This document shows positions 1,226-44,940 of a stretch of 64,000 nt of DNA, piece after piece (position 1 is the stretch's first letter; every line of letters starts with the position of its first letter). The notes below the pieces were generated by a model, which saw only the letters and a program-made list of their open reading frames with translations, made no database searches and was not told the DNA's origin. Source of the stretch: Schmidtea polychroa (taxonomy: Eukaryota); NCBI GenBank assembly GCA_044892525.1, contig CM097886.1, forward strand, positions 21,204,001 through 21,268,000. Direction: 5' to 3'. The translations under genes were made by a program, and so were the position numbers.

Positions 1226-2789
1226 AAAAAAAAAATTTGGACCAAAAATCCCTGAACGCAAAAAAAAATTACGGGAACCAAAAAATTACGGGAACAGGGG
1301 GGTGGGTTAATTGTTCCCGGGAGCTCCTAACTACCTACTAGCCTTATCTCTCACAGATATCAAGATATTTTTCCATTTTCCTTTTTTATTAAGCCGCCTT
1401 CTCCCGACAATTTTGCTATCTTTGACAGCTTTTTTTCCTATTTAGTTTTCCTGGAATTTGAAATTCCACCTTAATTTTCTTGTTTGTTTTTTTTATTTGA
1501 TTTATCTTTCTCATTTCTAATTTCTTTTTACTTCCGTTTTCTTTTCTGAGTTCCCATAAATCGTCCCCTTTGTCATGGCGATCTTCCGCCCAGGTAATTT
1601 ATTTATTTATTATGTTATTTATCATTTAGGTATCTTCAACAGATTTAATTCTTTTCCACTTTTTATGTATCCCCAGGTTCTATATTTTCTTTTTCTCTAA
1701 ACTTCCTAATTTGTCTTTTCCCATTCCTTATATACTCTTCGAAATCGGGATGACAAATGGTTATTGCTGAGCCAATCTTTCTCCTGACATTCGTGTCCAC
1801 ATATCTGCTTCGGCTATCACTCAGAATGGTTCGATGATAATTAATAACCCGCCGGGCCTTTCTACACGTACTATATTTTTCTTGGTCTTCTCCAATTAAT
1901 CATTGTGACAAGATAATGGTCCTAAATTTTCCTGTTTACTTTTCTCTTTGTTTACCCAACTCGGGATTTCTTTCTACTAGCTAATTAATTAATTAATTTA
2001 TTTCATTTTAATTAATTTTTTTCTTTCAACTTCCTCATAAAAGTAATTTTGAAAAAAATATTAATTTAAGAAATCTGGAAGGTAATGAGTTAATTCACAT
2101 GTTGAATTTATTAATATAATAAATTTTCATAGAAAGATTTTTTAGAAAACACAGTTATGACGTATAGAATCTGGGTCAGATGCTAGAATAAGTTAACATC
2201 ATAATGAAAAGAAAGAAAAAAGTGTAGGTTAAAAAAAAGAAATTTAACCAAAGATGAGGTAGTTTGAGTTATCGAAAAAAATTCCAAAAAAGGAAGCTGA
2301 CTTCAAAATTTATCGAAACATCCTGGAGATGATGGGCGAGTCATGGTAATAGCAAGAAATCAAGGCAGGGAGAATGAAATTTATTCAAAAATATATTGAC
2401 ATAAAAAATTAAAAAGTGTTGTATATATAACCACCATGAAATATTTGAAAATTGAAATATAATAAATTAATTGTAAAATTTAATTGCGTTTCTATCATCT
2501 TATCCAGAAATGCGAAGAAGCATTATACAGAAATTATACAAAATAGAGGCAGTGATCAGTATTCAAAATGCCAAGAAAAAGAAAGAAGAGAAAAAACACA
2601 TCCATCAATGTTATATTTAATAACTATTTGCTAGCATTAATTATAATGTATTTTCAATTCACTACAATGAATTAATAAAATAAAAATATAAAAAAATTCA
2701 TTTAATTATTTAGAAATATTTTTAATTCCAAATTGAAAATTATTCCTCAAAATATAAAATATTGAATTTTTGCACGATCACATGACTTT

Positions 2790-8599: not shown

Positions 8600-8771
8600 T
8601 GTGCACATAAATATTTTTAGGACCATAAAATACCTTGGCTTTTTAGTGACAATCGGATTTTGTATACAAAAATCCTGGGTCCTTAAATTACCATGGAGCA
8701 CTAAAAATATTTTTCTAGGGTTGGGGGTGGACACCGGATAATCTGATCCAGAGGGCCACTAACTACCTACT
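8600..8771. mobile_element. Terminus of a related Polinton-like family; other end not seen (possibly in the N gap at ~7792-7953)
   Basis: Ends in the same 13-mer CTAACTACCTACT (~8759-8771), preceded by a G-rich tract and motifs shared with the big element's TIR (TTTTTAGGACCATAA, CTTGGCTTTTTAGTG, GGATTTTGTAT). Confidence 0.65.
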
Positions 8772-16568: not shown

Positions 16569-18602
16569 GTAGCACGTCAATTGCGCGGGTCCAACTGCAC
16601 GGTAGGCAATTGCGCGGGTAGTCAATTGCGCGGGTAGTCAATTGCGCGGCCGTCAATTATTAAATGGGCTTAATTATTATTAAATCAATTAATTATTAGT
16701 AAATAAATTATTAAATGGGCTTACAGTTGCTATGAGGCCTCAATTTAGGCCGTCAGGCCTGCCTAGCCATCGAGCTGCTACTGTCAAGGCGGGTATATAA
16801 TGCGAGTGTTTTTTCGCAATTGACGAAATTGTAGTCATGTCTTTAGAGTTTGGTAAAAGCGAGAGGGGCAACAAAACTTTAATTTATAAGAATTTCGAAT
16901 ACGTTAAGGAATGCGAAAATGTGTGTGGTACTACCGCATGGCGTTGCAGGTTCAACAAGAAGTTCAAATGTAAGGCTCGAGTTGTAACCGATGACAGTAA
17001 AGTTGTTTGTGAGAAACAACCGGAACACACGCACAGTGGTAACGTCGCAACAGCAAAAGCACGAAAGGCGGTAGGAGAGATGAAAGAAATGATTGGCGCG
17101 TTGATGGCTACACCTAGTTCCTCACAGGCGTCCGTTTCGGCGGCACTAGATGATCACGTGCTGATGGCTTTGCCTAAACGATCGTTGCTGACTAGGACAT
17201 TGCAGCGAAAGCGTCAGAAGATTACGAAAGAAACCAACAACGGTCAAGAGCTACCGGCTATTCCAGGCGATCTTCGTTTTGATATACCTGACCGATTCAG
17301 GCATATAATTCTGTACGACTCAGGACCAGGTGATGATCGAATAATCCTGATGGGCTGTTTAGAGCTTCTAGATGGATTGGCTCGTGCTGATGTATGGATT
17401 GCCGACGGGACATTCAAAGTCGTCCCGAGCGTTTTTTTTCAACTGTACAGCTTCCATTTCAACTTCTCTTCCGGTATCAACCCTGCTGGTCTATACTGCC
17501 TCATGACGAATAAGACGGCTGAAACCTACGGACGCGTTTTCACCGAAATTCGCAACCTCGTTCCTTTGGCTTCTCCAACGACAATTTTGATAGACTTCGA
17601 GAAAGCGGTGATGAACACAATGAGTCTATCGTACCCGTACGCAAGAGTCACAGGTTGCTATTTTCACCTCTGTCAAAGTGTTATTCGTAAGGTCAACGAG
17701 ATAGGACTAAAGATTACCTACGAGAGTAACGATGAGGTCCGTGGGTACGTTCGATGTCTTTCTGCACTGGCGTTTGTTCCCCCCGATGATGTGGTGGAAG
17801 CTTTCGAGTTGTTGGTTGAAACAATGCCTGCCGATATCGATCATCTAGAAGAGCTCACGTCTTTCTTTAAGTTAACGTATGTCCGCGGACGTCGACGTCG
17901 AGGACGGGCCGAAGTGTATGCTGCAGCGATGTTCCCATTATCTATCTGGAATCAGCACGCCGGTGCATGCGAGGGAATTGCAATAACAACCAACTCAGTT
18001 GAAGGATGGCATCACGGCCTTCAGACACTGTTCCAGTGTAGCCATCCGACTGTCTGGACGTTCATGGCAGGATTAGAACGGGACATGAATCTACAAAAGT
18101 CAAAGTACTTGCAAGGGGCAACCGGTTTGGTGCAGCCGTCTCGTAAGACGTATCGTCAACTCAACGATCGCGTTGTAGCAGCTGTAGCAGCTTATGGTCG
18201 TACGGACATTCTGACATATTTACGTGCCATTTCACATCTGTCGCACTGTTAATTAACATTGATATTCATACTTACTAGTATTATTTAAATTGGACTTTTA
18301 TATTGATATTGATATTTGTTTGATTAATTTTGTGATAGTTTATTTAGGTAATATATAACTCACTTGATTTTGCAAAAGTGTGATTTTTGGTTATTTGTGA
18401 CGAAAAATAATGAAATAAATACCATATAATTATAAATAACAAAATTTGGAAACAAGGGAAAAATGTAATTAACCACCTCATCAGTTTACTATCCGCGTAG
18501 TTGGACCCGCGCAATTGACGCACCCGTAATTGACTACCCGCGCAATTGACGTCCGCGCAGTTGGACCCGCGCAATTGACGTCCGCGCAGATGACATGGTT
18601 TC
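16569..18602 (+). mobile_element. Apparently intact Mutator-like (FLYWCH-MULE) DNA transposon, 2034 bp, 9-bp TSD GTTTTTAGC
   Basis: TSD at 16560-16568 and 18603-18611. TIRs built from tandem GTCAATTGCGCGGG units, inverted at the two ends. One uninterrupted transposase ORF. Confidence 0.92.
16837..18252 (+). CDS. MULE transposase with N-terminal FLYWCH zinc finger (471 aa)
   Basis: F-x-Y...WRC...C...H-x-H FLYWCH motif; DGTFK, IDFE, GCYFHLCQS, TTNSVEGWH motifs; ATG to TAA intact. Confidence 0.95.
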   Translation: MSLEFGKSERGNKTLIYKNFEYVKECENVCGTTAWRCRFNKKFKCKARVVTDDSKVVCEKQPEHTHSGNVATAKARKAVGEMKEMIGALMATPSSSQASVSAALDDHVLMALPKRSLLTRTLQRKRQKITKETNNGQELPAIPGDLRFDIPDRFRHIILYDSGPGDDRIILMGCLELLDGLARADVWIADGTFKVVPSVFFQLYSFHFNFSSGINPAGLYCLMTNKTAETYGRVFTEIRNLVPLASPTTILIDFEKAVMNTMSLSYPYARVTGCYFHLCQSVIRKVNEIGLKITYESNDEVRGYVRCLSALAFVPPDDVVEAFELLVETMPADIDHLEELTSFFKLTYVRGRRRRGRAEVYAAAMFPLSIWNQHAGACEGIAITTNSVEGWHHGLQTLFQCSHPTVWTFMAGLERDMNLQKSKYLQGATGLVQPSRKTYRQLNDRVVAAVAAYGRTDILTYLRAISHLSHC

Positions 18603-24886: not shown

Positions 24887-26977
24887 CAACGGTGGGCAAA
24901 TGCGGCTCTTCGTTGAGTAAACTGCGGCTCATTGATAATTGAATTTTTGATAATTGAATTTGAAAATTGAATTCGATTTTTTTATTTTGAAATTTTTTCA
25001 ACTGAATTTTTAAAAAAAAATTTTTTTGTTGCAATTGTATTTTCATAAATGTTAAAAATTAACGAAACATTGTTTTTCACATTTTACTGCTTTTTAAAAT
25101 TATTTTGTAGTAGGCGGCGCTTTGTTATAACAACGAGAGAGAAGCAATGAAAATAAATTTAGTGAAATTTAGTGAATTTTGATTAGTTAGTATTTTTGTT
25201 TGTACAATATTGCGGTCGTTTGTATATTTTAGTATAGTTTTCTATTCGTGTTTTTTGAAAAATTTGGTAAGAAGATTTTTTATGAAGCATTTTAAAATTT
25301 TAAATTAATTAAAATTAAATTTATGTCTTTTTATTATTTTGTTTAAATTTTAGTAATATAAGTTATTCAAATTTATTATTACAATGACCTCAGAAAACAT
25401 CAAAAAACGAAAATACAAACAAGAAAATAGAACTTTTCAAGAAGAATGGACAGAGAATTGTACATTCAGTTTAGCTCTCGACGAGTCTACTGACATTCAG
25501 GATGTTCCACAATTAGCCGTTTTTGTCCGCTTTGTATCTTCTGACGTAAAAGTTAAGGAAGAAATTTTAGACCTAGTAGCTCTTAAAGAAACAACTCGTG
25601 GTATCGATGTCAAAACTGCGCTTGATGTAGTGATGGACAAGTTTGAATTGGCGTGTGATAAACTTGTAAGTGTTGCGACAGACGGAGCGCCTGCAATGAT
25701 GGGAAAAATCAAGGTCTCATTGGTCTTTTAAACAGAGATCCAAATATTCCTCATTTCTTATCTCTTCAATGCATAATTCATCGCGAGCATCTCATAGCGA
25801 AGTACTTTAAATACGAAAATGTGTGGAAGATTGTTTTGAAGATTGTGAATTTAATTAGAACAAATGCCAAAACACATCGTCAATTTAAAAACCTTTTAGA
25901 AGAATTAAGATTAAATGATGAAACAGATGAATTGCCCAATGATGTCTCCTTATGGTGTATTGTTAGATGGCTGTCAACTTACAATGTTTTGGACCGTTTT
26001 GTGGAACTCCTAAATCCTATCATAATATTTACCAAAGAAAAAGGAATAGCATACCCAGAATTAGAAAATGAAACTTGGCTTTCTGACTTAATGTTCCTTA
26101 CAGACATTATGGAACATTTGCAAATATTAAATTTGGCTTTACAAGGAAAAGAAAAGATAATTATTGATTTGTCACAAACGTTATTTAGTTTTGAAGCTAA
26201 ACTTCGGCTTTTTGTGAACGATCTTAGGTCGAAAATATTTAATCATTTTCCACGAATAAAAGCTAATAAAATTGATATCACAGAAAAAAAAGTAAACGAA
26301 TACAGTGAAAAATTGCAAGAATTGCAAGCGGATTTCAAATGTAGGTTTGAAGATTTGAAAAGTTTTAAATCTACATTTGCATTTTTTGTGAACCCATTTA
26401 TTTGTGATATTATTGAAGATGGATTTCCAATTTCTGAAGTAATACTTGTTAAAAAAGCGGTTGGGGAATTGGAGTTATTAGATATGAAAGAGGACCAGGC
26501 TTTGCAAATGCACCATAAAGTTACTTCTATAATTGAATTTTGGAAACTCGTACCAGAGGCAAAATATCCACACTTAAAACAAGCTGCTTGCCGTCTAATT
26601 TCAATTTTTGGTACAACATATTGTTGTGAATCTTTGTACTCCACAATGAAGTTCGTGAAGTCGAAATATCGTTCAGAGTTGACCAATCAGCATCTTACAG
26701 AATTGCTGCGAACAGCTTTAACAAAGTATACACCAAATTTGAAAGATTTGACCAAAAGTCTTCGTTAATTCAAGAAATTTTATTACTTTTTATTAATGGA
26801 TTTTTATTATATTTTATGTTTGTTACTTAAATTTTGAAATAATTGTTTTTAATAGCGTTTAAGTCTTTTTTAATCAAATTAATGAAATAAAAAAAATATG
26901 TAGTTCACTATGGTGGCTCTTTAAAAAATAAATTTTCGGAAAATGTCTCTCATTGAACTCATGCGTGCCCACCCTTG
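24887..26977 (+). mobile_element. Internally deleted Buster-type hAT, 2091 bp, 8-bp TSD CTATATAC
   Basis: TIRs CAACGGTGGGCA / TGCCCACCCTTG; TSD at 24879-24886 and 26978-26985. Confidence 0.92.
25384..26768 (+). pseudogene. Buster/GTF2IRD2-like hAT transposase with N-terminal deletion and frameshift
   Basis: RTFQEEW joined directly to SLALDESTD; VATDGAPAM, CIVRWLS, IFGTTYCCESLYSTMK motifs; split into ORFs 25384-25731 and 25821-26768. Confidence 0.9.
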
Positions 26978-27236: not shown

Positions 27237-28434
27237 CTAATCCAAGCGAATTTCTAATTTACGTGAACTTTTTGCTAGTTCATCTAGAACTGCATCTGTA
27301 GAAATCGCGACATTACGATGAATATTAAGTAACGATAATCCATTTAACCTATCTTCACTCATTGTGTTGCGTAAATACGTTTTAAGTCGTCTCAATGTTG
27401 AAAAAGATCGTTCACTGCTTGATGTTGTAACTGGTAGTGTAGCAAAAATTTTAAGTAATTTTCGAACAGTTGGGAAAATTGAATCGTCGCATGCTAAAAA
27501 TGCATTATGAGCATTTTTTGGTGTATTCGAAGAATTTAAAACATGGCACCACCATAGCTTCAGCTCACCAATGCCCTCAACTATGCTACAGTTTGTAATA
27601 CTATTATATTTTTCTAAAAGGATTTTTGCAGAATTTTCATGCTCTGATGAAAAGTTTTGTTCATTTGGCAAAAGACACATAAAACTTTGCAATATATTTT
27701 TATGTTTCAGAAACCGATCGTGAATTTGCATCTTTGTAGAATCCACAAAAGGAATGAAGATGGCAATATGATAATACTCTTCAGGATTTTCAACTACAAT
27801 GTTGCAGCGATGAACTTGTCATCCGGTTAGACGAGGAATTCGTATTTCTACATTAAGTTCGTCACATATTTTCTTGACGTCACTGAAAATGGTATTAAAT
27901 TGCTTTTCTATTTCGCGCCGTGTTTCATCTAGCACCTCTTCAACATTTTCTGCCAGTCCCATTGCAGCGGCCAGATCAAGATTTATTGTTTGTAGTAATC
28001 GACTTAGCGGTAGGGTTATAGCAAAAACCTTGGCAAGAACATGAAGCGATACTTGAAATTCTGTACTCCTAATAACAGATAGAAGCTGAATTGCAGAAGA
28101 AGAAGTTGTTTTGTCATCCCATTCAGAAATAATTTCCATTGCAGAAATTGCAGCTTTTTGAAGCTCCATAAAAACTAGGACGGACTCGTGGCGTTGAATC
28201 CATCGTGTGGGACATATTTGTTTTAGTCGCGTTGCTGTTGATTCAGATTCCATTTGGTCTATACAATTTTTTAGCACGGCTTGGCGCTTTGGGGTGTTAA
28301 AAAAATTGTACACACTTCCGAGTGATCCTATACAATTTCGTATAAATGAAATTTCACAAGCATCAGAAATAGCGAGGTTTAAACTATGAGATGCAGTGTA
28401 CATATAAAGCTAGCTTATTTTCATCACTAACATA
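27237..28434 (-). pseudogene. hAT transposase, C-terminal half (downstream of the 15.4-kb insertion)
   Basis: H-(C)-ASHSLNLA, CPTRWIQRH, TLPVTTSSSERSFSTLRRLKTYLRNTMSEDRLNGLSLLNIH. Confidence 0.92.
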
Positions 28435-29389
28435 AGTAGGTAGTTAGGAACCTACGGCAGCAATGACCCCCCCCCTGCTGCCGTAATTTTTTTTTGCGTT
28501 CAGGGATTTTTGGTCCAAATTTTTTTTTCAGACTATAGTGAGGGGGTCTCGATGGTCCTGGGATTTTCAATACAAAAAGGCGGTCTCAATAAAAAAGCCA
28601 AGGATTTTTCAGAAAAAATTTTTTTCAATACAAAAAGGCGGTCTTCAATAAAAAAGCATGGTAATTTAAGGTCTCAGGATATTTTCAATAGAAAAAGGCG
28701 GTCTTCAATAAAAAACAGTGGTAATTTAAGGTCTCAGGATATTTTCAATACAAAAATCCGATTATCATTAAAAAAGCATGGATTTTTCTAGGTCAATTCA
28801 GGTGGGTCTTCTTGGTCCTGAGAATTTCAATAGAAAAAGGCGGTTTACACTAAAAAACGTGGTAAATTTTTTAAAATAAAGCAAATTATGGTCCTAAAAA
28901 ATTAAATTATGGTCTAAAAATTGAATTACAGTAAATTATCGGCTCAGATTTTTCAATTAAAGTAAATTATGGTCCAGATTTTAAAATTAAAGTAAATTTA
29001 GGTTCTAAAAAATTAAATTAAAGTTAATTAAGGTCCAAATTTTAAAATTAAGTAATCAAAGTAAAAAATTTTAAATAAGTAAATTATAGTAATAATTTTT
29101 AAATAAGTAATGTAATAAGTAAATTAAAGTAAGATTTTTAAATTTATATTACAAAAAGTTGAAATAATAGAAGGTGTTTGAGAATTGAAATTTTTTAATG
29201 AAAATTTTTATGAAATATTTTTCAATGATAATTTTTAATGGAAATTTTTATGGATTAATTTTTTAAGTAATTTTTAATGGAAATTTTTATGAAATAATTT
29301 TTTTAAGTAACTTTTAATAGAAATTTTAATGAAATATTTTTCAATTGTTATTTTTATGAAATATTTTTCAAAGACAAATTTTAATAATA

Positions 29390-29950
29390 ATTCAACAACA
29401 AACCAACAACTTAGTACCAACAACCAGTAACTTACGAACATGTATTTACAACGGGATACCTACAACCAGCTAAAACAAGTTACCTGATACCAACTACTTA
29501 CAACCCACAACAACCAGGTACTAAGCATTATTAACCAACTACTAAGTACCTACAACCAACTAGCTACCAACTACCAACTACTTACAACCCACAACAACCA
29601 GGTACTAAGCATTATTAACCAACTACTAAGTACCTACAACCAACTAGGTAATAGATACCAAGTACTTACAACCGACAACAACCAGGTACTAAGCATTAAT
29701 TACCAACTACTAACAACCCACAACAACCAACTACTAAGTACCTACAACCAACTACCAAGTACTATCAACCAGCTAACAACTAGATACCAAGTACTAACAA
29801 CCCACAACAACCAACTAACTACCACCTACCAAGTACATACAACCAACATCAACCAGGTACTAAGCATTAATTACCAACTACTAAGTACCTACCAAGTACA
29901 AGGTACCTAGTACTAAGCACTGTTAACTAGATACCAAGTACTTACAACCA
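29390..29950 (+). repeat. G-poor CAACCAACTACTAAGTACC-type low-complexity tract (mirror ~41170-42060; second pair ~31190-31690 and ~39480-40000)
   Basis: Strongly strand-skewed degenerate repeats, inverted in the opposite arm. Confidence 0.85.
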
Positions 29951-32900
29951 CATAAATTATTGGTTAAATAGGTAAATTAATGTTTAATTTTTAAATTAAC
30001 TAATCAATGATCTAAAATATTAAAGTTTAGGATGAAAGTTTTCAATGTTAATTTTATATGCAAATCTTCGTCAATTAATCAATGACCACATGAAATTATT
30101 AGTTAAATATGAAAATAAGGGTTATAATTAGTTGTTTAGTAAATTATGGTGTAAAATTAAGTAATAAAGGATAAATAGGTAAATTAAGGATAAGTAAATT
30201 AAAGTTAAAAATTTGAAATAAATAAATTAAGGTTCAAAATTTTAAATTAAAGAAAACAATGGTTTAAATTTTATATTAAAGCTAAATGAGAAAATAAAAG
30301 TAATAATTTTTAAATAAGTAATGTAATAAGTAAATTAAAGTAAGATTTTAAATTTATTATCAAAAGATTGAAAAAACCACCAACTTTTTTGAGAAATGTA
30401 ATTTTTAATGAAAATTTAAATGGAATTTTTTTTTAAGTTAATTTTAAATGTAAAATTTTTTAAGTTAATTTTAATGAAATAGTTTTCAAAGTNNNNNNNN
30501 NNNNNNNNNNNNNNNNNNNNNNNNNNNNNNNNNNNNNNNNNNNNNNNNNNNNNNNNNNNNNNNNNNNNNNNNNNNNNNNNNNNNNNNNNNNNNNNNNNNN
30601 NNNNNNNNNNNNNNNNNNNNNNNNNNNNNNNNNNNNNNNNNNGTTACTAAATATTTTTAACTAGGTGCTAACAAATACTTTCAACATGATACCACGTACT
30701 AACTAACTCTCAAACATCCAAGTAAAAACAACTAACTACTTACAATCAACTAAATATTCTTTATTGTATTTTATGAAATGCTTTTTAAATTAATTTTTTA
30801 TACAGCTTCTATAATAATTTTATTTACAATCAGTATAAAAAACTTTTCAAAATGTCTAAATTTAACAAAAATGTTGATTTTAGCCCAAAAAATAAATAAT
30901 TGTCAACTCATCACCACGTGGAATTCAAAATAATTTAAATTACAATGAAAGACTAATGAATTATAATTTACAAAACATTCTTCTTTTAAATGATAACTAC
31001 TGACTTATTATTGCAAAGTAAAAATCTCATTCAATAAATACTTATTGTTGATCAGTTTTATTATATATACTCTGAGTTTATCCGACAGGATGTTTTGACC
31101 CCCTAAGGGTACAGGTCGTAAGGGTACTGGTCGTAAGGGTATTAGTCGTAAAGGTACTAGTCGTAAGGGTATTGGTAACACTCAACCCCCCACATACCCA
31201 TTAACTAGCTACTAAGTACTAACAACCAGCTAACAACTAGATACAATGTACTATCAACCAACATCAACCAGGTACTAAGCATTATCAACCTACAACTATA
31301 TAACAACAATCAGTAAACAACACTGTACCAACTACCAAATATAAGATACCAACAACATAGTATCATCAACCAGTAACTTACGAACATGTACTAACAACCA
31401 ACAATCAAGTACTAACAAATTGATCTTTAAAAGAAAATCCTCTTCACTTGCAATATTGATCACACTCAATACCACCTACTCATTAATTAACAACCATGTA
31501 CTAACAACTAGGTTTCAAACAACTAAATACTAAACACTTACAACCAGATACCTACAACTAGTTACTAACAACCACCATCAAAACCCATCGAGAAATTAAC
31601 ATATATCAACTATAGAACAACAATCAGTAAACAACTTAGTACCAACTACCAAATACAACAAACCAACAACTTAGTACCAACAATCAACTAACCACTCATA
31701 AAAATAATAACAATTAAATACAAAATATTCTTCATCAAATACAATATCTTCTTATCAAAATCTAAAAAGTCAACCAACTACTTACAACCAACAACTATGT
31801 ATTAACAAATTGATCTTTAAAAGAAAATACTCATCACTTGAAAAATTGGATGGAAAATTAATTGAACTCAAGGCATCAATAACTTGGTAAAAATTGATTA
31901 AATAATTGTAAAAATTTAAATTATTCAAAATAAATATCATAAAAATTTAATTAATGGACAAAAAAGAACATTAAATTTGAATCATTAATCATCCAGTAAA
32001 TAAAAAAATACTGATCATTCAAGTTAATATGAATCAACTAAGATAATAAATTAATGAGATAAGATTTAGTAAATAATTGATTTAGATTGAATAAATTAAT
32101 TGAAATAAAATTAATTTTAATTATTTTTTTGTAAAAGTAATACATGTACTCAAAATGATTGACTGATTGCTCAATATATTCAAAAAATCAGTATAAATTC
32201 ATTACAATTATCAAAGTCATCAATCTACAATAAAAATAATTATCATTAAATTCCAAAAGAGACTAGATAACTAATGATAACATCTAATAAACCAGTAAAT
32301 TCATTTAAATGACAATAATTGGTATAGCCAAGTGAATTCTCCAATAAAATCATCTAAAAAGAATCATTTTCCCTGAAATATCTCCGTCTTTTAAGATTAG
32401 TATCTTATCGATAAGTACTTGTTAAAGATCATATATTCACCTCAAACTAAAAAGATTCCTTAAAATCCCTTAAATGACTATATTTCAACCCTTAATTCGT
32501 ATTATTACAAATATCATCTAAAAAGCATCAAATTTCATTGAAATAACTCTATCCTTAAAGATTGATATTTTAATGATAAGTACCCGTAAAAGATCATATA
32601 TTCCCCTCAGACTAATAAGATTGCTTAAAATCCCCTGAAATGACTATAATTCTAACTTTAATTCCTATTATCATACATATTTCACTATTGATAAAACCAG
32701 TTATAATTAAATTTTTGTTAATCACTGTAAATTTTTGTAAATCACTGTACTCGAAATTTAAAATAAATATAACTGACTAGGTCACATTGAAAGATTAAAT
32801 TTATCCATTCAATAAAATATATTTCTTCAAATGGTCAACTTTTGTCGTTGTCCGCCTAAATAAAGATAAAAATAATTTAAAGTTGATATCAATCCCAATT

Positions 32901-33069
32901 ATCTGTAAAGTTTTCATTGTCAAAACCAAGTAAATCGATCATTATCCCTACTTAATAAAACATTGTTCTAAATTAATTTATTGTGCATTAATCACAACCT
33001 AATAAAACGATATAATTATTATTGATTCATAACTGACTAATTGCAATTTCCCTTAAAACATTGATATTT

Positions 33070-33340
33070 TACCAACATACTTAAAAAATCATATTTTTCC
33101 CATCTTAACCCATCTCTCATTAAATTAAATCGACTATATCTCCCTTACAATGATATATTCCCATCTTAACCCATCTCTCATTAAATTTAACCGACTATAT
33201 CCCCTTAAAAAGATCATATTTTCCCACCTTATCCGATCCCTCATTAAATCTAAACCGACAAAATCCCATTTTATCCGATCTCTCACCAAATATTTCTACC
33301 CTTTTAAACATCTATCCGATTATATCCCTTATTTTCCCTA
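33070..33340 (+). repeat. ~57-bp degenerate tandem repeat (CCCATCTTAACCCATCTCTCATTAAAT...), mirror ~37770-37960
   Basis: Units at ~33098, 33160, 33223. The 63-aa ORF 33150-33341 is repeat-derived. Confidence 0.75.
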
Positions 33341-34089
33341 AAGATTCCACCCACTTGAGCCTTTTAATATAAATCAATCCTCTTAAAATCCTCAGAGAAC
33401 TTCAAAAATATGACTTTTAATTAATTGTTATAGGAACCAGACATATAATAAGAGCCCACTAAAAGATCAAAATTCACTAAAGTTTTCTACAAATATTTAC
33501 CATCAAATACTGGAGATGATATATATTGTTTGATCATAATTCTTCAGCTATTCAACCAATCATTTTCAAGCACTATCAGCAAACTAAATTTCAGTTTCCT
33601 ACAATAATTATCAAGTAAATTTAAAGTCCTTGATAAAGTTAACTGGTTTCTTAGCTTATGTTTTTTAAAGATCATCAATGTGTAAATATTCTTAGAAAAT
33701 TATTGAAAACATTATTTAGTCAAATACATTACAAAGTTATCATCAAAAATCACTTAATTATTAACCCAATTGTCAATGAAATTAATTTTTATTTAAAAAC
33801 TATTCAATAAAATACCACTAATTATCAAGAAATTAATTAAATTTATCAATTAAATTTATCAATTAAATTTATCACCATTAAAACTTTTAATCAGTCAACA
33901 TGAAATTCTTAGAAAATTATTCAATATCCTCATCAAAATTTATCCTATCACTTGATTATTGTACAAACTTTAATTATTAACCTCATTGAAAATAATTTTT
34001 ATTTAAAATTAAAAAACAAGTCAATAAAAATACATCCAATTATCAAGAAATTAATTAAATTTATTTTAGAATTAACATTAAATTATTAA

Positions 34090-34310
34090 AAATTCACGAA
34101 AATGATAGAAATCCACAAAAATTACAAATATTCACAAAAAATTATGGAAATTCATGAAAATGATGGAAATTCACAAAAAACGATAAAAATTCACAAAAGT
34201 GATAGAAATCTGCAAAAATCAAAGAAATTCACAAAAATGATAAAAATCCACAAAAAACGATAAAAATTCACAAAAATGATAGAAATTCACAAAAATGATA
34301 GAAATTTACT
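34090..34310 (+). repeat. GAAATTCACAAAAATGATA-type minisatellite (shorter mirror ~36915-37025)
   Basis: Repeated ~20-bp units; copy number differs between arms. Confidence 0.8.
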
Positions 34311-35119
34311 TGAATATTTACTAAAACCATCAACTTTAAAAATTATCAATGCCTTAAACAACAAATTTGCCTAAATAATCATTCACATAAAAGCATTAAA
34401 TACCTTAAAGACTAATACCCTTACGACATGTTGAATGTGAGTAGACCCTTGTGAGCAATACCCATAGGGGGACAGAATATTTTGTCGGATAAACTCAGAG
34501 TATATATTAATTACCTCATTCAAATTTTTCATTGAATTAGTAAAATTATCATAAATTTCGATAAAAATTCTAAAGTGGTAAGCAATTGTAGGATAAAAAG
34601 ACAATTATTCTTTAAACTATGATAAAATTAACAATGAAGGTGGTAAGAATCTTCATTCAAGTGAGGAAATTATTCATTACTCGATGATAAATTCAAATGG
34701 GTGAAAATAATTGGTAGAATAATTCATTAATGGAGGTAAATACTGAGAATGGGCATAGATAAGAAGAAGGTTGATAAGAATGGAAATATATTAATTGAAT
34801 TTATTTAAAATTCTTTCATAAAATTCATAAATTTAATAAAAAAAAAACTTTTAAAACAAATATTTGTGGGGATATTTTTAGTAAATAATTAATAAAAATC
34901 GGCGGAATATTAGTGAATAAATATCAAGGGTGGGGGTTATAGGCGAATAATTAATTGAAAATCGGGAGGTTATAAGTGATTAATTAGTGGAAAATCGAGG
35001 GGATACAAATGATTAAATAGTGGAAAATTGGGGAATATAAGTGAGGAGGATATATAATTTAAACTATTTTATTACATAACAGGCCGTAACTATTTTATTA
35101 CATAACAAGCTGTGAATGG

Positions 35120-36235
35120 TATTTGAATAAGAAATATGGAGTAGGTCTTTTTTTTTAAAATTTTTGACTAAATTAAATTCTAAAATAATAACTAATTATT
35201 ACTAAAATGTTTTAATTTACATTATGTATTTTAAAAACAATTATCATAAAAGAAAATAATATATATATTACCCTTTTCATTCAAAATAAGTTGAATATTC
35301 AAATATAAGTCTTAGAAAATATTTAATATAAGGTATTTTATTGAGAATTATTGATTAGGTCTTTTTTTTTTAATTTTTGAATAAGTACTTTAATACCTTA
35401 ATAATTTAAATGTTTTGATTTACACTAAATAATTTCTAAATCAATTACCCTTTTCAATCAAAATAAGTTAATATTCAAATATAAGTCTTAGAAAATATAA
35501 ATTTTATAAGTTTTTCAAATTTTCAAATAATGTAAATAAGAAATTAATCTATTACCAGTTATATACTTTAAAACTTATTGATGGAATAAGAAAAAAGTTT
35601 TGTTGTATAAGTCCTTTAATATTGTAATAATTATTTATTAATAAATTTATAATTTTACGTTAAATATTTCATAAACAATTATCATATTATTAATTATATT
35701 ACCCTTTTTAATCAAATAGATGACTTTTATAAAATACAATTAAAATTAAATACTTTAAACTAAATTTAAAAATATAAATTTTATAAGTAAATGTAAATAA
35801 GAAATTAGTGTATTAGCAGTTATAGACTTTTTAAACTTATTTATTAGGCAATAGATAATAAAAGTTACTTTTTTTTTCAAAAAGTCCTCTAATATTGTAT
35901 TCTATTTATTATTAAATTTACAATTTATACTAAAAAAATTCAATTTAGAAAACAATCATCATAATATTAAATATGAAACTTCAATCAAAATAAGCTAATA
36001 CTCAAATATGTGTCTTATAAAATACAATCAAAATTAAATACTTCACAAAATTTAAGTAAAGTTTTTAAATTCTCAAATAAATGTTAACAAGATATTAATT
36101 TATTAATCATTATAGACTTTTTAAACTTATTATTGGAATAAAGCAATAGAATGATATTCAAAATATATACAATTTTAAAATATAATTAAAATTAAATTAC
36201 ATACTTTAAATATTTGGTAAAATGTTGATAAAATA
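35120..36235. repeat. Central spacer of the palindrome, made of degenerate direct repeats (~270-bp period)
   Basis: TAAATGTAAATAAGAAATTA...TTATAGACTTTTTAAACTTAT recurs at ~35530, 35790, 36080; ATAAGTCTTAGAAAATAT at ~35305 and 35480. Confidence 0.65.
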
Positions 36236-39200
36236 CCTTTCACAGCTTGTTATGTAATAAAATAGTTTAAATTATATATCCTCCCCCAATTTTCCACTAT
36301 TTAATCATTTGTATCCCCTCGATTTTCCACTAATAAATCACTTATAAACCTCACCCCGATATTTAATCAATTATATTCCGCCGATTTTGATTAATAATTC
36401 ACTTAAAACATTCCCCACAAATATTTGTTTTAAGATTTTTTTTATTAAAGTGATAATTTTTAGAAAATAGTTGCAATACATCCATTCTTATCAACCTTCA
36501 TCTTATCTATGCCGCTTCTCAGTATTTACCTCCATTAATGAATTATTCTACCAATTATTTTCACCCATTTGAATTTATCATCGAGTAATGAATAATTTCC
36601 TCACTTGAATGAAGATTCTTACCACCTTCATTGTTAATTTTATCATAGTTTAAAGAATAATTGTCTTTTTATCCTACAATTGCTTACCACTTTAGAATTT
36701 TTATCGAAATTTATGATAATTTTAATAATTCAATGAAAAATTTGAATGAGGTAATTAATATATACTCTGAGTTTATCCGACAAAATATTTTGTCCCCCTA
36801 TGGGTATTGCTCACAAGGGTACTACTCACATTCAACATGTCGCAAGGGTACTGATCATTTAATGCTTTTATTTGAATGATTATTTAGGCAAATTTGTTTA
36901 AGGCATTCATTGATAATTTTTGTGAATTTTTATCGTTTTTTGTGAATTTCCATCATTTTCATGAATTTCCATAATTTTTTGTGAATATTTGTAATTTTTG
37001 TGGATTTCTATCATTTTCGTGAATTTTTAATAATTTAATGCTAGTTCTAAGATAAATTTAATTAATTTCTTGATAATTGGATGTATTTTTATTGACTTGA
37101 TTTTTAATTTTAAATAAAAATTATTTTTAATGAGGTTAATAATTAGAGTTTGTACAATAATCAAGTGGTAGGATAAATTTTGATGAGGATATTGAATAAT
37201 TTTCTAAGAATTTCATGTTGACTGATTAAAAGTTTTAATGGTGATAAATTTAATTGATAAATTTAATTAATTTCTTGATAATTAGTTGTATTTTATTGAA
37301 TAGTTTTTAAATAAAAATTAATTTCATTGACAATTAGGTTAATAATTAAGTGATAGAATAAATTTTTGATGACTTTGTAATATATTTGACTAGATAATTT
37401 TTTTCAATAATTTTCTAAGAATATTTACACATTGATGATCTTTAAAAAAACATAAGCTAAGAAACCAATTAACTTTATCAAGGACTTTAAATTTACTTGA
37501 TAATTATTGTTGGATATACAGAAATTTAGTTTGTTGATAGTGCTTGAAAATGATTGGTTGAATAGCTGAAGAATTATGATCAAACAATAGATATCATCTC
37601 CAGTATTTGATGGTAAATATTTGTAGAAAATTTGAGTAAATTTTGATCTTTTAGTGGGCTCTTATTATTTGTCTGGTTCCTATAACAATTAATTAAAAGT
37701 CATATTTTTGAAGTTCTCTGAGGATTTTAAGAGGATTGATATATATTAAAGGGCTCAAGTGGGTGAAATCTTTAGGGAAATTAAGGGATATAGTCGGTTA
37801 GATGTTTAAAGAGGTAGAAATATTTGGTGAGAGATCGGTAAAGATGGGATATTGTCGGTTAAATTTAATGAGGGATGGGTTAAGATGGAAATATATCATT
37901 GGAAAGGAGATATAGTCGATTGATTTTAATGAAGGATGATGTTGGTCAAATATCAATGTTTTAAGGGAAATTGCAATTAGTCAGTTATGAATCAATAATA
38001 ATTATATTGTTTTATTAGGTTGTGATTAATTCATTGTATATTAATTTAGATTTATGTTTTAGAACAATGTTTTATAAAGTAGGGATAATGATCGATTTAC
38101 TTGGTTTTGACAATGAAATCTTTACAGATAATTGGGATTGACTTCAACTTTAATTTATTTTTATCTTTATTTAGGCGGAGAATGACAAAAGTTTAGAAAT
38201 ATGGACTTAAAACATCGACTAATGAAAATTGATCTTTAATCGAAGAAATTTATCGGGTGATTTTAATTAGTAATTAAATCGGTTGAATATTGGTAAAAAT
38301 GATCATTTGAAGAAATATATTTTATTGAATGGATAAATTTTATCTTTCAATGGGACATAGTCAGTTATATTGTACAGTAATAATTATTTTAAATTTCAAA
38401 TACAGTGATTTACAAAAATTTAATTAAAACCAGTTTTATCATTCGATTTTATAAATTATTTAGGGTTAATGACCAATTTATTTTACATGTTTTAAAAGGA
38501 AATATTCCTGATAATATGAATTAAAGTTAGAATTATAGTCATTTAAAGGGGATTTTAAGCAATCTTATTAGTCTGAGGTAAATATATAACCTTTTAAGGA
38601 TATTTATCGATAAGATACTAATCTTAAAAGATAGAGATATTTCAGGGAAATTTGATGCTTTTTAGATGATATTTGTAATAATATGAATTAAGGGTTGAAA
38701 TATAGTCATTTAAGAGATTTTAAGGAATCCTGTTAGTTTGAGGTGAATATATGATCTTTAACAAGTACTTATCGATAAGATACTAATCTTAAAAGATAGA
38801 GATATTTCAGAGAAAATGATTCTTTTTAGATTATTTTATTGGAGAATTCACTTGGATATACCAATTATTGTCATTTAAATGAATTTACTGGTTTATTAGA
38901 TGTTATCATTAGTTATCTAGTCTCTTTTGGAATTTAATGATAATTATTTTTATTGTAGATTGATGACTTTGATAATTGTAATGAATTTATACTGATTTTT
39001 GAATATATTGAGCAATCAGTCAATCAATTTGAGTACATGTATTACTTTTACAAAAATAATTAAAATTAATTTTATTTCAATTAATTTATTCAATCTATAT
39101 CAATTATATACTAGATCTTATTTATTAACTTAGTTGATTCACATTAACTTGAATGATCAATATTTTTTTATTTACTGGATGATTAATGATTAGAATTCTT

Positions 39201-40555
39201 TCTTGTCTATTAATTACATTTTTATGATAATTATTTGGTATATTTTGAATAATTTAAATTTTTACATATTTTTTTAATCAATTTTTACCTAGTTATTGAT
39301 GCCTTGAGTTCAATTAATTTTCCATCCAATTTTTCAAGTGATGAGTATTTGCTTTTAAAGATCAATTTGTTAGTACATAGTTGTTGGTTGTAAGTAGTTG
39401 GTTGACTTTTTAGATTTTGATAAGAAAATAGTCTATGTGATGAAGAATATTTTGTATTTAATTGCTATTATTTTTATATGTGGTTAGTTGATTGTTGGTA
39501 TTTGGTTTCTAATTGTAAGTACTTGCTAGCAGGTAACTGGTTGTTAGTAACTAGTTGTAGGTTGATATTTGTTAATTTCTTGACGGGTTTTGATGGTGGT
39601 TGTTAGTATGTGGTTGTAAGTGTTTAGTATTTAGTTGTTTGAGAGTTAGTTAGTACTTGGTAAATAGTTAATTGGTAGGTGGTGGTTGAGTGTTACCAAT
39701 ATTGCAAGTGATGAGTATTTGCTTTTAAAGATCAATTTGTTAGTACTTGATTGTAAAGACATGTTCGTAAGTTACTGGTTGATGATACTATGTTTTTGGT
39801 ATATTGTACTTGGTAGTTGATACAGTGTTGTTTACTGATTGTTGTTATATAGTTGTTGGTTGATAATGCTTAGTATCTGGTTGATGTTGTTTGTAAGTAC
39901 TTGGTATCTAGTTGATAGCTGGTTGTAAGTACTTGGTATCTAGTTGTTAGCTGGTTGTTTTTGGTTGTTAGTACATAGTTGGTTGTAGGTGGAGGGGTTG
40001 AGAGTTAGCAATACCCTTACGACTAGTACTCTTACGACTAATACCCTTACGACCTGTACCCTTAGGGGGTCAAAACATCCTGTCGGATAGACTAAGAGTA
40101 TATATAATAAAATGAATCAACAATAAGTATTTATTTAATGTCATTTTTACATTGCAATAATAAGTCATTAGTAATCAATTAAAAAAAGATTGTTTTGTAA
40201 ATTATAATTCTATAGTCTTCCATTGAAATTTAAATTATTTTGAATTCCACGTGGTGATGAGTTGTCAATTATTTATTTTTTGGGCTAAAATCAACATTTT
40301 TGTTAAATTTAGACATTTTGAAAAGGTTTTTCTACTGATTGTAATTAAACATATTTTTGAAGACAGATAAAAAATTAATTTAAAAAGCATTTCATAAAAT
40401 ACAATGAAGAATATTTAGTTGATTGTAAGTAGTTAGTTGTAAGTATGTGGTTGTTTGAGAGTTAGTTAGTACGTGGTATGATGTTGAAAGTATTTGGTAC
40501 TTATTTGTTAGCACCTAGTTAAAAATATTTAGTAACCGATTGTTGGTAACTGTTG

Positions 40556-40556
40556 A

Positions 40557-40621
<65 letters not shown>

Positions 40622-40636
40622 CATTATTATTATTAT
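40556..40636. repeat. (ATT)n microsatellite in the right arm
   Basis: Its mirror position in the left arm coincides with the N gap 30493-30642. Confidence 0.95.
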
Positions 40637-42959
40637 TCCATTTAAATTTTCATTTGACTTTGAAAACTATTTCATTAAAATTAACTTAAAAAATTTTACA
40701 TTTAAAATTAACCTAAAAAAACTTCCATTTAAATTTTCATTAAAAATTACATTTCTCAAAAAAGTTGGTGGTTATTCAATCTTTTGATAATAAATTTAAA
40801 AATCTTACTTTAATTTACTTATTTAGCTTTAATTTAAAATTTGAACCATTGGATACTTAATTTTAAATTTTGAACCTTAATTTACTTATTTAAAATTTTA
40901 AACTTTAATTTACCTAATTATTCTTTATTTCTTAATTTTACACCATAATTTACTAAACAACTAATTATAACCCTTATTTTCATATTTAACTAATAATTTC
41001 ATGTGGTTATTGATTAATTGACGAAGATTTGCATCTAAAATTAACATTGAAAATCCCTGAAAATTTTCATCTTAAATTGACTTTAACTTTAATATTTTAG
41101 ACCATTGATTACTTAATTTTAAAATTTGGACCTTAATTTACTTATTTTACCAATAATTTCATGTGGTCATCTGGTTATAAGTACTTGGTATCTAGTTGAC
41201 AATTCTTAGTACTAGGTATCTTGTACTTGGTATCTTGTACTTGGTTGTTAGTTGTTGGTTTGTTGTTGGTACTTGGTATCTAGTTGACAGGGCTTAGTAC
41301 TTGGTATCTGGTAGCTAGTTGTTAGCTGGTTGTTGGTTGTTAGTACTTGGTAGGTGATTGTAGGTACTTAGTAGTTGGTAATTAATGCTTAGTACCTGGT
41401 TGTTGTTGGTTGTAAGTAGTTGGTAGGTGGTAGCTAGTCGGTTGTTGGTTGTAGCTTGTTAATGGGTAGGTGGTTGTATGTACTTGGTATCTAGTTGTTA
41501 GTATCTAGTTGTAGGTATCTGGTTGATGTTGGTTGTAAGTAGTTGTAGGTATCTGGTTGTAAATACATGTTCCTAAGTTACTGGTTGTTGTCGGTTGTTA
41601 GTACTTGTATCTGGTACCTAGTTGGTTGCTTGTTTTTGGTTGTTAGTACTTGGTAGGTGGTTGTTAGCTGGTTGTTGGTACTTGGTATCTAGTTGACAGG
41701 GCTTAGTACTTGGTATCTGGTAGCTAGTTGTTAGCTGGTTGTTGGTTGTTAGTACTTGGTAGGTGATTGTAGGTACTTAGTAGTTGGTAATTAATGCTTA
41801 GTACCTGGTTGTTGTTGGTTGTAAGTAGTTGGTAGGTGGTAGCTAGTTGGTTGTAGGTTGTAGCTTGTTAATGGGTAGGTGGTTGTAGGTACTTAGTAGT
41901 TTGTAACTGGTTGTTAGTAACTAGTTGTAGGTACTTGGTATCAGGTAAGTGGTTGTTAGTAACTATTGGAAGTACTTGGTATCAGGTAACTGGTTGTTAG
42001 TAACTAGTTGTTAATACATGTTCGTAAGTTACTGGTTGTTGGTACTAAGTTGTTGCTTTGTTGTTGAATTATTATTAAAATTTGTCTTTGAAAAATATTT
42101 CATTAAAATTTCTATTAAAAATTACTTAAAAAATTAACTTAAAAAATTATTCCATAAAAATTTCCATTAAAAATTACCATTGAAAAATATTTCATAAAAA
42201 TTTTCATTAAAAAATTTCAATTCTCAAACACCTTCAACTTTTTGTTAATAAATTTTAAAATATTACTTTAATTTACTTTAATTTACTTATTTAAAAATTA
42301 TTACTTTAATTTACTTATTTAACTTTAATTTAAAATTTTTGACCATTGATTACTTAATTATAAAATTTGGACCATTATTTACTTTAATTTAATTTTTTAG
42401 AACCATAATTTACTGTAATTGAAATATTTGGACCATAATTTACTTTAATTGCAAAATCCGAGTCCATTAATTACTGTAATTCAAAAATTTGAACCTTAAT
42501 TAACTTTAATTGAAAAATTTGGACCATAATTTACTTTAATTGAAAAATCTTAGCCCATAATTTACTGTAATTCAATTTTTAGACCCATAATTTACTTTAA
42601 TTCAGAAATCTTAGCCCATAATTTACTGTAATTTAATTTTTTAGAACCATAATTTACTGATATTGAAAAATTTGGACCATAATTTACTTTAATTTTAAAT
42701 TTTGAACCTTAATTAACTTTAATTCAAAAATTTGGACCTTAATTAACTTATTTGAGCCCATTGATAACTTTAATTCAAAAATATGAGCCCATAGTTTACT
42801 TAAATTTAATTTTTAGAACCATAATTTACTGATATTGAAAAATTTGGACCATAATTTACTGTAATTCAAAAATTTGGACCATAATTTACTTTAATTTAAT
42901 TTTTTAGGACCACAATTTATTTTAATTGAAAAATTTACCACGCTTTTTTATTGAAGACC

Positions 42960-43730
42960 GCCTTTTTGTATTGAAAATCCCAGGACCATCGAGACCCCCT
43001 CACTATAGTCTGAAAATTCCATGCTTTTTTATTGAAGACCAGCTTTTTGTATTGAAAAAATTTTTTTTGTATTGAAAATCCCTGGATCAATCGAGACCCC
43101 CTCACTATAGTGTGAAAATTCCATGCTTTTTTATTGGTAGTCGGATTTTTGTATTGAAAAAAATTTTTTTGTATTGAAAATCCCAGGATCATCAAGATTC
43201 CCTCACTATAGTCTGAAAAATCCTTGGCTTTTTTAGTGTAGACCAGCTTTTTGTATTGAAAAAAAAATTTGTATTGAAAATCCCAGGACCATCGAGACCC
43301 CCTCACTAAAGTCTGAAAATTCCATGCTTTTTTATTGAAGACCAGCTTTTTGTATTGAAAAAATTTTTTTTGTATTGAAAATCCCTGGATCAATCGAGAC
43401 CCCCTCACTATAGTGTGAAAATTCCATGCTTTTTTATTGGTAGTCGGATTTTTGTATTGAAAAAAATTTTTTTATATTGAAAATCCCAGGATCATCAAGA
43501 TTCCCTCACTATAGTCTGAAAAATCCTTGGCTTTTTTAGTGTAGACCAGCTTTTTGTATTGAAAAAAAAATTTTGTATTGAAAATCCCAAGACCATCGAG
43601 ACCCCCTCGCTATAGTCTGAAAATTCTATGCTTTTTTAGTGGTAGTCGGATTTTTGTATTGAAAAAAAAAATTTGTATTGAAAATCCCAGGACCATCAAG
43701 ACCCCATCACTATAGTCTGATAAAAAAAAA
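42960..43730 (+). repeat. Eight ~101-bp subterminal units with a ~303-bp higher-order period
   Basis: CACTATAG-like cores at ~43001, 43103, 43204, 43304, 43406, 43507, 43608, 43708; units 2-4 resemble units 5-7. ORF 42935-43408 is spurious. Confidence 0.9.
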
Positions 43731-43834
43731 TTTGGACTAAAAATCCCTGAAAGCAAAAAAAAAATTACGGGAACAAAAAAAATACGGGAACAGGGGGGGG
43801 GGTAATTGTTCCTGTGGGCTACTAACTACCTACT

Positions 43835-44940
43835 AACATATTTTTGTGCCCATGAAATCGTCCACTCATTGCTGAAACTCCATCATAACCCTGTCCAATC
43901 ATGAATCACGCATAGTCTGCATTAAAACATTTGCAAGACCCTTACCAGTCACATCAGTAACAGGTACAAACTGTAAAAAATCTTCTCTGATGTTATTCGA
44001 ATCAGAATCTACATAACGAAAGCATAATGAAAATTGTTCAATACCAGCTATATCACTAGTTTCGTTTTATTTTAGCAACAATTGAACGAACAACTATTAT
44101 GTTGCATGCACTTATAATTTCGTTTTGAATTCTTGGACTCAAATAAGTTGCATTTTTTCCTGGGACCTCTAGATGATTTTTAAGTATTTCATCTCCACAA
44201 TGGACGTAAAAGTACTCGAAAATTTCCATCATTTTCCTCTGGATTATTGTTGGATTAGTGTTAAAGTGCCAGAGTCTCTATGTCCTCTTAAAGGCAAACC
44301 TTGACGACCGCAAAAAAGTATAGTCTCTATTATTGGAGTTAATCTACTCCGATTTTCTATTATTTGTTTTTTAGACCGGAGTCCAATGCCAACACTACAG
44401 GTTCCATTCTATGCTCGGAAATTGCTTTACGATTTTGTGCGTGAAGAACGGCTGTTTTATGGTACTCAGTTTCTTGATGTTTGTTGAAATTTTCTATAGC
44501 ATCTTTCCAGTTTGAGAAAGCAGTTTCGCAGAAAATAATACACAATACTTACAGAAAGCACCATCCAAAGGTTTTGAGTATACTAACCATTTCCACCTAC
44601 TAAACCAGCTGTATTGAAACTTTAAATTACGTTTTCCACTAACTGGGAATACAAATTTGTCGTCAGGATACCAAACGTTTTTCAACAAAAATAATCTTTT
44701 TTCATCGTCGTATTGGTTTTTTCCAATAAAATTACTAATATCATTAATAATTACATTTGAATCTGATCCTGATGGAGACTCAAATTCACATCCCCTTAAT
44801 GAAGCTGCAGCACTATCATTTTCACTAGGAACAGGAACAACCTGATCAGCTGTTCTTTCTAAATCACTTGTTTTAGATTTTTTAAAATAATTTGTTAAAA
44901 TAGAATTTTTTAATTTTCTTTTCTCGTTATTCATTTTCAT
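43835..44940 (-). pseudogene. hAT transposase, N-terminal half with TTF-type zinc finger
   Basis: FQYSWFSRWKWLVYSKPLDGAFCKYC, FSNWKDAIENFNKHQETEYH, CGRQGLPLRG, DETSDIAGIEQFSLCFRYV, GQGYDGVSAMSG; frameshifts present. Confidence 0.92.

Follow-up and report, generated by a model that had tools for sequence, protein, structure and literature searches.

The ends in the window and the element they bound

The window analysed here is a stretch of 64,000 nucleotides from Schmidtea polychroa (contig CM097886.1). It contains four ends, at 28435, 1339, 43834 and 8771, which have one exact 13-mer in common. In the 64-kb window this 13-mer has 4 exact matches, and 18 matches with at most two mismatches compared with 0.83 expected. 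Those at 28435 and 43834 bound a single element, which is flanked by the target duplication AACATA and differs in core type between left and right (Table 1). A tblastn search with the family proteins inside 28435..43834 gave no match and no gene remnant, pPolB included.

Table 1 Features of the element and of the other family ends in the window. End positions are counted inwards from the terminal nucleotide.
Feature	Position	Strand	Remarks
Non-autonomous Maverick derivative, 15.4 kb, gene-less, largely palindromic	28435..43834		Nested inverted repeats 75-98% alike
Left 6-bp target site duplication AACATA	28429..28434	+	
Right 6-bp target site duplication AACATA	43835..43840	+	
Invariant terminal 13-mer, left end	28435..28447	+	
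Hypervariable 7-nt spacer, end positions 14-20	28448..28454	+	
Core site GCAGCA, end positions 23-28	28457..28462	+	Predicted partner: SSYA polymerase loop
Inverted copy of end positions 19-28 (3' arm of the annotated hairpin)	28476..28485	-	
Right-end core site GGAACA	43807..43812	-	Predicted partner: IKQY/VRQY loop
Two inverted copies of the right-end core	43770..43792	+	43787-43792 and 43770-43775
Terminal 13-mer, right end	43822..43834	-	
Right end of another family member	1272..1339	-	13-mer 1327-1339, core GGAACA 1312-1317
Inverted copies of the 1339 end	1289-1296 and 1272-1278		The second is degenerate
Divergent end with core GGATCA	8744..8771	-	Core at 8744-8749; without significant stem

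ORFs or fragments resembling DNA-transposase genes, putatively MULE-, hAT- and pogo-like, are found at 16801-18252 (+), 25357-26768, 27237-28409 and 51468-52346, and the element at 28435 is inserted beside one of them. A fragment at 60267-60523 is 56% identical to the 132-aa ORF of the family, and is a remnant of a sister Maverick.

The initial annotation described each end as a 13-mer followed by a hairpin, with two stem positions that change on both strands together; these are end positions 24 and 26. Three of the hairpins are present. The stem at the 28435 end is perfect over 10 bp, longer than was annotated, and that at the 1339 end over 8 bp, while the 43834 end has a 6-bp core with an A.C mismatch (T.G on the plus strand), followed by a second inverted copy. 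The shorter stem that had been annotated at 8771 is at chance level, both in its fold and in having no perfect inverted match of at least 6 bp, and was rejected. When compared with shuffled sequences, the 28435 end is the only one that folds clearly better (z -3.15), the other three giving z of -0.92, -1.40 and -0.33. An Rfam search of the window found no match.

Family identity

The exact 13-mer occurs 3,163 times genome-wide, compared with 27 for a control, and a one-base variant occurs 2,322 times, compared with 6 for its control, making approximately 5,500 terminal 13-mers of both forms in the genome. According to the accessible text of PMC8097293, Maverick/Polinton elements are recognised by their end motif, their target duplication and their gene set. 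Here, the terminal inverted repeats (TIRs) have the AG...CT end motif, 38 end pairs share a 6-mer as target duplication (one of these being probably a false pair), and matches to PF03175 place pPolB inside copies with these ends. The gene-bearing copies are 16.6-17.1 kb long, with genes for pPolB, an rve integrase (E 1.2e-08; the ORF has only 167 aa), an A32-type ATPase (Pox_A32, E 7.9e-07) and a TBP-like protein. Three ORFs, of 407, 341 and 338 aa, are without a match in Pfam; their size makes them candidates for the double jelly-roll major and minor capsid genes. The ends thus belong to a Maverick/Polinton family, and the link to Polintons made in the initial annotation was correct: the same ends bound copies that carry pPolB, integrase and ATPase and are flanked by 6-bp duplications.

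The AG...CT ends, 6-bp duplication, long TIRs and length of about 16-17 kb are the same as in the Mavericks/Polintons covered by the accessible text of PMC8097293, as are pPolB, the rve integrase and the packaging ATPase. Unlike those, most copies here are gene-less or pPolB-only palindromes, and that text describes no allelic code between end site and polymerase of the kind presented below. A search of viral contigs for relatives of the pPolB region found none. An assembly artefact was considered and rejected, since spacer and core are as a rule alike at the two ends of an element. Among 33 elements that have a main core at each end, 3 carry two different ones on a count made by eye, the element in the window being one of them.

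Some further observations concern the family. The TBP-like protein has 158 residues (L109:2515-2991, minus strand, and other gene-bearing copies; Pfam TBP E 3.4e-16), and its gene is nearly identical across core types. End-like sequences are found near sister Maverick families, whose polymerase is about 58-66% alike, at L105 (position 24195 of L103-L105) and at L234:2660. Their 13-mers are related to those of the family and the spacing is unchanged, the core or loop forms are others, and an inverted copy is not clearly present. Inward-facing end pairs occur as little as about 270 bp (L174:1211-1482) and 73 bp (G000:C1:52463626-52463698) apart, which suggests that they are miniature derivatives or the central junctions of foldback copies.

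Covariation of the arm and its inverted copies

A sample of 171 distinct ends was compared. It covers the window and the initial 21 Mb of contig C1, and is not random, having been taken from the places listed first and from a small number of polymerase regions. The core at end positions 23-28 is of one of four types in 142 of the 171 ends. The first inverted copy matches the core in 98 of these 142, and 9 have no copy. In the main class the match is found in 80 of 86 ends, compared with a mean of 24.4 and a maximum of 42 in 10,000 shuffles, and the changes on both strands seen at the window ends therefore hold for the main class genome-wide. The covariation is position-specific: among 68 unique haplotypes, the normalised mutual information (nMI) of the cognate arm pairs is 0.90, 0.80, 0.74 and 0.60, and the neighbouring spacer is nearly unlinked to the core.

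The downstream units are tandem repeats of 16-17 nt that vary in number. The second to fourth copies covary with the core as well (90 of 101 match), only one copy being able to pair with the arm at a time, and the last copy, which shares about 10 nt with the arm, still matches. The invariant C21 is opposite an A in 68 of the 86 ends, and 67 of the 86 have position 22 base-paired with its partner. Of 99 main-class ends, 69 have a CnGn centre, by which the stem becomes a long palindrome (median -20.8 kcal/mol, z -4.0) that is near-perfect and has unstable run lengths. C-only ends, the type found in the window, and G-only ends fold weakly, with z of about -1. Wobble pairs are on opposite strands in different classes.

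The G-run subfamily behaves differently from the main class. Its first inverted copy matches the arm in 3 of 32 ends, the downstream partner being almost always GCAACA whatever the 5' arm, so that the match is lost exactly in the subfamily that has no C-run. A GGAACA arm with a G-run is found at 173 ends genome-wide, and all 11 of those sampled have a G.G mismatch. In 17 of 32 G-run ends, the arm could form a stem with a distal copy if one G.T is allowed; in 11 of 32, the distal copy too is mismatched, by a G.G. The proximal stem is dispensable in this subfamily, and with 3 matches in 32 ends, hairpin pairing is not kept in all amplifying lineages. The inverted arms of two G-run copies are 99.3-99.6% alike, and the subfamily is, on this likeness, young and recently amplified. 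Some G-run copies have pPolB as their only long ORF (G000:C3:32532200-32547700; L119-L120; L098), and two of these carry it as 99% identical inverted duplicates, being polymerase-only foldback satellites.

Coupling of the core to a loop of the polymerase

The residues of pPolB are numbered here as in the copy in L110. The loop consists of residues 386-389, and its coding patch is 4-5 kb from the end. In a discovery set, the loop tracks the core in 17 of 17 copies; with 23 copies added later, the agreement is 40 of 40 copies that have both patch and end, all from one genome and many of them close kin. The core GCAGCA is found with the loop SSYA (17 copies); GCAACA with ISQY (3), ITQY (2), VTQY (1) and ITKY (1); and GGAACA with IKQY (12), VRQY (3) and VREY (1). 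The rare loops VREY and ITKY are with the core expected from their one-step neighbours. None of 20,000 permutations reached 40/40, whether free or within subfamily, the best giving 27-28, and cluster representatives are concordant in 22 of 22 cases (0 of 100,000 permutations). A cross-check by coordinates started from 29 listed patch places, of which 23 have a fetched end; all 23 are concordant. Some of these places are duplicates or the two arms of a single element, and two of the ends are at a distance of 8.3 kb.

The association is narrow. The nMI with the core is 1.0 at four columns in a patch of 12 nt, and outside the patch, among 240 polymorphic columns, it reaches 0.53 at most, with a median of 0.20. 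The 3 kb that separate patch and end give a FastTree tree requiring 8 core changes and 8 loop-class changes, compared with 17.8 when shuffled; because of recombination, this tree serves as a guide only. Tests on independent pairs gave 3/3 and 5/5 in the same direction (p 0.25 and 0.0625), which are too few for significance. Copies that are 99.6% identical over the intervening 3 kb differ in both traits, and copies that are 94% identical share both. This is strict co-segregation of loop and core amid shuffled sequence, maintained despite recombination, as expected of an initiator-origin specificity pair.

A fourth loop was predicted beforehand, and is SRQN in both of the GCCGCA copies that have their own polymerase, in one of which the end is 26 kb off, beyond a nested element. 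There are 296 GCCGCA ends genome-wide. Among eight GCCGCA-ended elements, two have their own patch (SRQN), one has a nested sister polymerase alone, and five have none.

The set of 40 leaves out L253, which pairs VRQF with an unlisted core, GACGCA; L234, a sister-family copy with SRND near a GCAGCA end; L238-L240, which have only an internal look-alike of a terminus; and L213, L216, L217, L222, L230, L231, L235, L237, L251, L252, L259 and L271, which have no end in the fetched stretch. L238, L239 and L240 are tandem arrays of units of about 1-2.3 kb with the vOTU region of pPolB and the loop VRQN, with no end in reach. The patch is found at 1,265 places in the genome. At G000:C1:365000-1366000 it is matched 31 times at short intervals, almost always in a single codon haplotype, which suggests a local repeat with a captured pPolB fragment.

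The G-run subfamily separates the loop from the stem. Its polymerase loop follows the 5' arm in 17 of 17 copies, the downstream copy being GCAACA in all of them, and in 15 of these the stem is broken. Because the 5' arm follows the polymerase loop in all 40 copies, whether the stem is paired or not, what is conserved is the sequence of the arm relative to a protein partner, and not pairing per se; the annotation had proposed the opposite, that pairing rather than sequence is conserved.

The other genes were considered as the specificity partner and rejected. Between copies of different core type, the ATPase, the integrase region, the ORFs of capsid size and the TBP-like gene have 96-100% identity, in a comparison of which some rows are partial or come from a nested element, and all of these genes are absent from the pPolB-only copies. 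The pPolB-only copies keep the coupling of loop and core.

Unpaired positions of the spacer, and position 22 next to it, are also linked to the polymerase, those of the spacer to residues close to the zinc finger, and the links are looser than those of the core. In the 40 copies, position 15 goes with residues 499 and 511 (A with Q499 in 14 of 17, G with R499 in 20 of 22), position 18 with residue 489 (C with H in 22 of 23), position 20 with residue 484 (G with K in 7 of 8) and position 22 with residue 359 (G with Y in 24 of 30). The max-statistic permutation P, which ignores kinship, is <0.004 for positions 15 and 18 and 0.017 for positions 20 and 22; positions 14 and 19 have no significant association with the polymerase in these copies. 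Applied out of sample, the four rules hold in 11/12, 8/11, 9/12 and 11/11 copies, in a set of low diversity.

The polymerase domain that carries the loop

A model of the domain was made from an alignment of 85 sequences, 84 of them chosen among 150 listed homologues. It has a pLDDT of 90.2; a fold from the single sequence has a pLDDT of 43.5 and is unusable. The top structural matches of the model are all OTU domains, with VIA-align Z of 7.5, 7.2 and 7.2 to Otu2, a viral OTU and OTUD3 respectively, and a best rmsd of 3.5 over 96 residues. Foldseek also ranked OTU domains, but weakly, at E of at least 0.19, and has no match for the model at E up to 0.001. The ESM Atlas matches are solely to unnamed eukaryotic clusters, and a homologue search with the whole protein gave 3 hits. 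The catalytic C371 is present in 83 of the 85 homologues and H475 is nearly invariant. The loop patch comes after the helix of the catalytic Cys; it is hypervariable among the 85 homologues, and directly after it comes an Arg that 71 of the 85 share. Downstream of the domain is a C2H2 finger, at residues 503-523.

OTU domains are known, as far as we are aware, as proteases and not as DNA readers. On the model, with its OTU fold and its catalytic Cys and His, the polymerase domain is the vOTU domain of pPolB as described in the accessible text of bioRxiv 10.1101/2024.03.18.585575. It resembles the TP-vOTU-EXO-PALM pPolB of that work in having an OTU fold and catalytic Cys/His behind a terminal-protein-like domain, and differs in that here the vOTU loop covaries with the end sequence. 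There, vOTU is proposed to be a protease that cleaves off the terminal protein, and the accessible main text has no mention of DNA binding, zinc or an origin of replication.

Discussion

On the basis of these observations, we propose that the 5' arm is an end site in lock-step with the OTU-domain loop of the element's own polymerase, and that this domain and the finger next to it likely bind the site to start copying. We put the probability of this reading at roughly 0.7. The polymerase domain would bind end positions 15-26, which would place the fused terminal protein and polymerase at the end, with the loop reading the core by direct protein-DNA contact. Recombinants with a loop unable to read their own end would fail to amplify and so be selected against. 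Because the terminal protein is fused to the polymerase, the action would be mainly in cis. The inverted copies would be accessory sites on the other strand, or would be corrected within the strong CnGn palindrome, and gene-less elements, including the one in the window, would borrow a helper polymerase of the matching type. Cognate binding would thus give rise to allelic specificity groups.

The alternative put forward in the initial annotation is a functional single-stranded DNA hairpin, acting in protein-primed replication or in integrase processing, in which selection keeps the pairing and not the sequence. Its replication part fares well: the end feature very probably belongs to protein-primed replication. 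Pairing as the conserved unit is unlikely. It would account for the specific covariation of cognate positions, the long CnGn palindromes, and the G-run arms that pair with a distal copy through one G.T, and it has in its favour position 22, which follows the protein only weakly yet pairs in 67 of 86 ends, and which the protein model alone does not explain. However, the first copy seldom matches in the G-run ends, a third of which are mismatched with the distal copy too and are of a type found 173 times in the genome; the later copies covary equally; C21 is invariant and mostly unpaired; the wobbles are on opposite strands between classes; and C-only and G-only ends fold no better than shuffles. 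Nor can pairing explain why the arm tracks a polymerase loop 4-5 kb off. A role for the hairpin in addition to that of a protein site is possible. The match of arm and copy could also be neutral, coming from template switching or repair in a GC-rich palindrome together with slippage among the tandem units. Correction of quasi-palindromes by template switching has been described (PMC3820800, accessible text), and the near-perfect palindrome, its unstable runs, the variable number of 16-17-nt units and the loss of the match exactly where the C-run is missing all fit. The last downstream copy speaks against it, sharing only some 10 nt with the arm and yet matching. A neutral origin also leaves the tie to the polymerase loop unaccounted for, so that it does not suffice by itself and is improbable as the sole cause. 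It can coexist with readout by the polymerase, and may account for the covariation that was annotated, so that the arm covariation is probably a by-product, either of extra sites or of palindrome correction.

Two further explanations concern the coupling itself. A few lineages might have fixed both loop and core once, leaving a link by shared ancestry alone. Core type does cluster on the tree beyond chance, and lineage structure alone gives associations of up to 0.57 (at end position 10). However, the association peaks at 1.0 within 12 nt and is down to 0.2-0.5 within 20-60 nt, the intervening 3 kb is shuffled, and the same core is found with different codon haplotypes (IKQY and VRQY; ISQY, ITQY and VTQY) in both subfamilies, which leaves shared ancestry strongly disfavoured and very improbable. 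The coupling might otherwise be functional and indirect, acting through processing of the terminal protein, a host factor or the integrase. The retention of the catalytic Cys and His, and the proposal noted above that the domain cleaves off the terminal protein, are consistent with this. Against it, the integrase, ATPase, capsid-size and TBP-like genes are alike across core types and the pPolB-only copies are still coupled. The residue changes resemble readout of bases, in which Gln goes with A, and Lys or Arg with G. We regard an indirect coupling as very unlikely. Direct reading of the end site by the polymerase is the explanation that we prefer.

The system can be compared with others. In adenovirus, the origin in the ITR is read by the complex of pTP and polymerase, and auxiliary sites are read by host factors. 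The elements described here are similar, in that an invariant terminal stretch is followed by a sub-terminal recognition region in protein-primed initiation; we know of no co-segregating allelic code within one population of adenovirus. In plasmid Rep-iteron systems, the initiator and the repeats of its origin have diversified together, giving specificity types. Initiator and origin sites co-diversify here as well; unlike in Rep-iteron groups, the reader is a polymerase domain, the replicon is linear and protein-primed, and the alleles recombine within one genome. Palindromes within TIRs are also found in casposons (PMC4046053) and at the tips of Halocafeteria virophages and PLVs, mainly in elements without pPolB, where they are proposed as primers (bioRxiv 10.64898/2026.07.28.741278). 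As far as the accessible text of both goes, these too are self-replicating elements with a proposed role of the palindrome in replication. Unlike the Halocafeteria tip palindromes, the palindrome here starts 20 nt inside the end, is dispensable in one subfamily, and has an arm that follows a protein.

The element is thus of a known kind, and it is the allelic coupling of polymerase loop and end site that appears to be new. The accessible text of bioRxiv 10.64898/2026.10.13.758929 suggests that pPolB and integrase share end specificity. A code between polymerase loop and end site was not found in the full-text literature searched, most subscription papers, including the original descriptions of Polintons, being outside its scope, and recognition by a Maverick/Polinton of its own ends is not shown in that literature either.

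The natural variation provides a residue-level map between polymerase and end sequence, with four natural allele pairs. It also illustrates that covariation between inverted repeats can stem from shared protein sites and not from base pairing. A wider reading, which we consider evenly poised between right and wrong, is that the OTU 'protease' domain and the next finger are a modular reader of positions 15-26, that one family is divided into recombining specificity groups, which diversify through an arms race against replication-stealing satellites, both gene-less and polymerase-only, and that the hypervariable Polinton loop is a general origin-recognition code that can be read from genomes. 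If the proposed recognition is true, the OTU-fold domain would gain a role in reading DNA, and the odd combinatorial variety of Maverick ends would be explained. It would also predict the helper on which each gene-less satellite depends, and the specificity groups would resemble the incompatibility types of plasmids.
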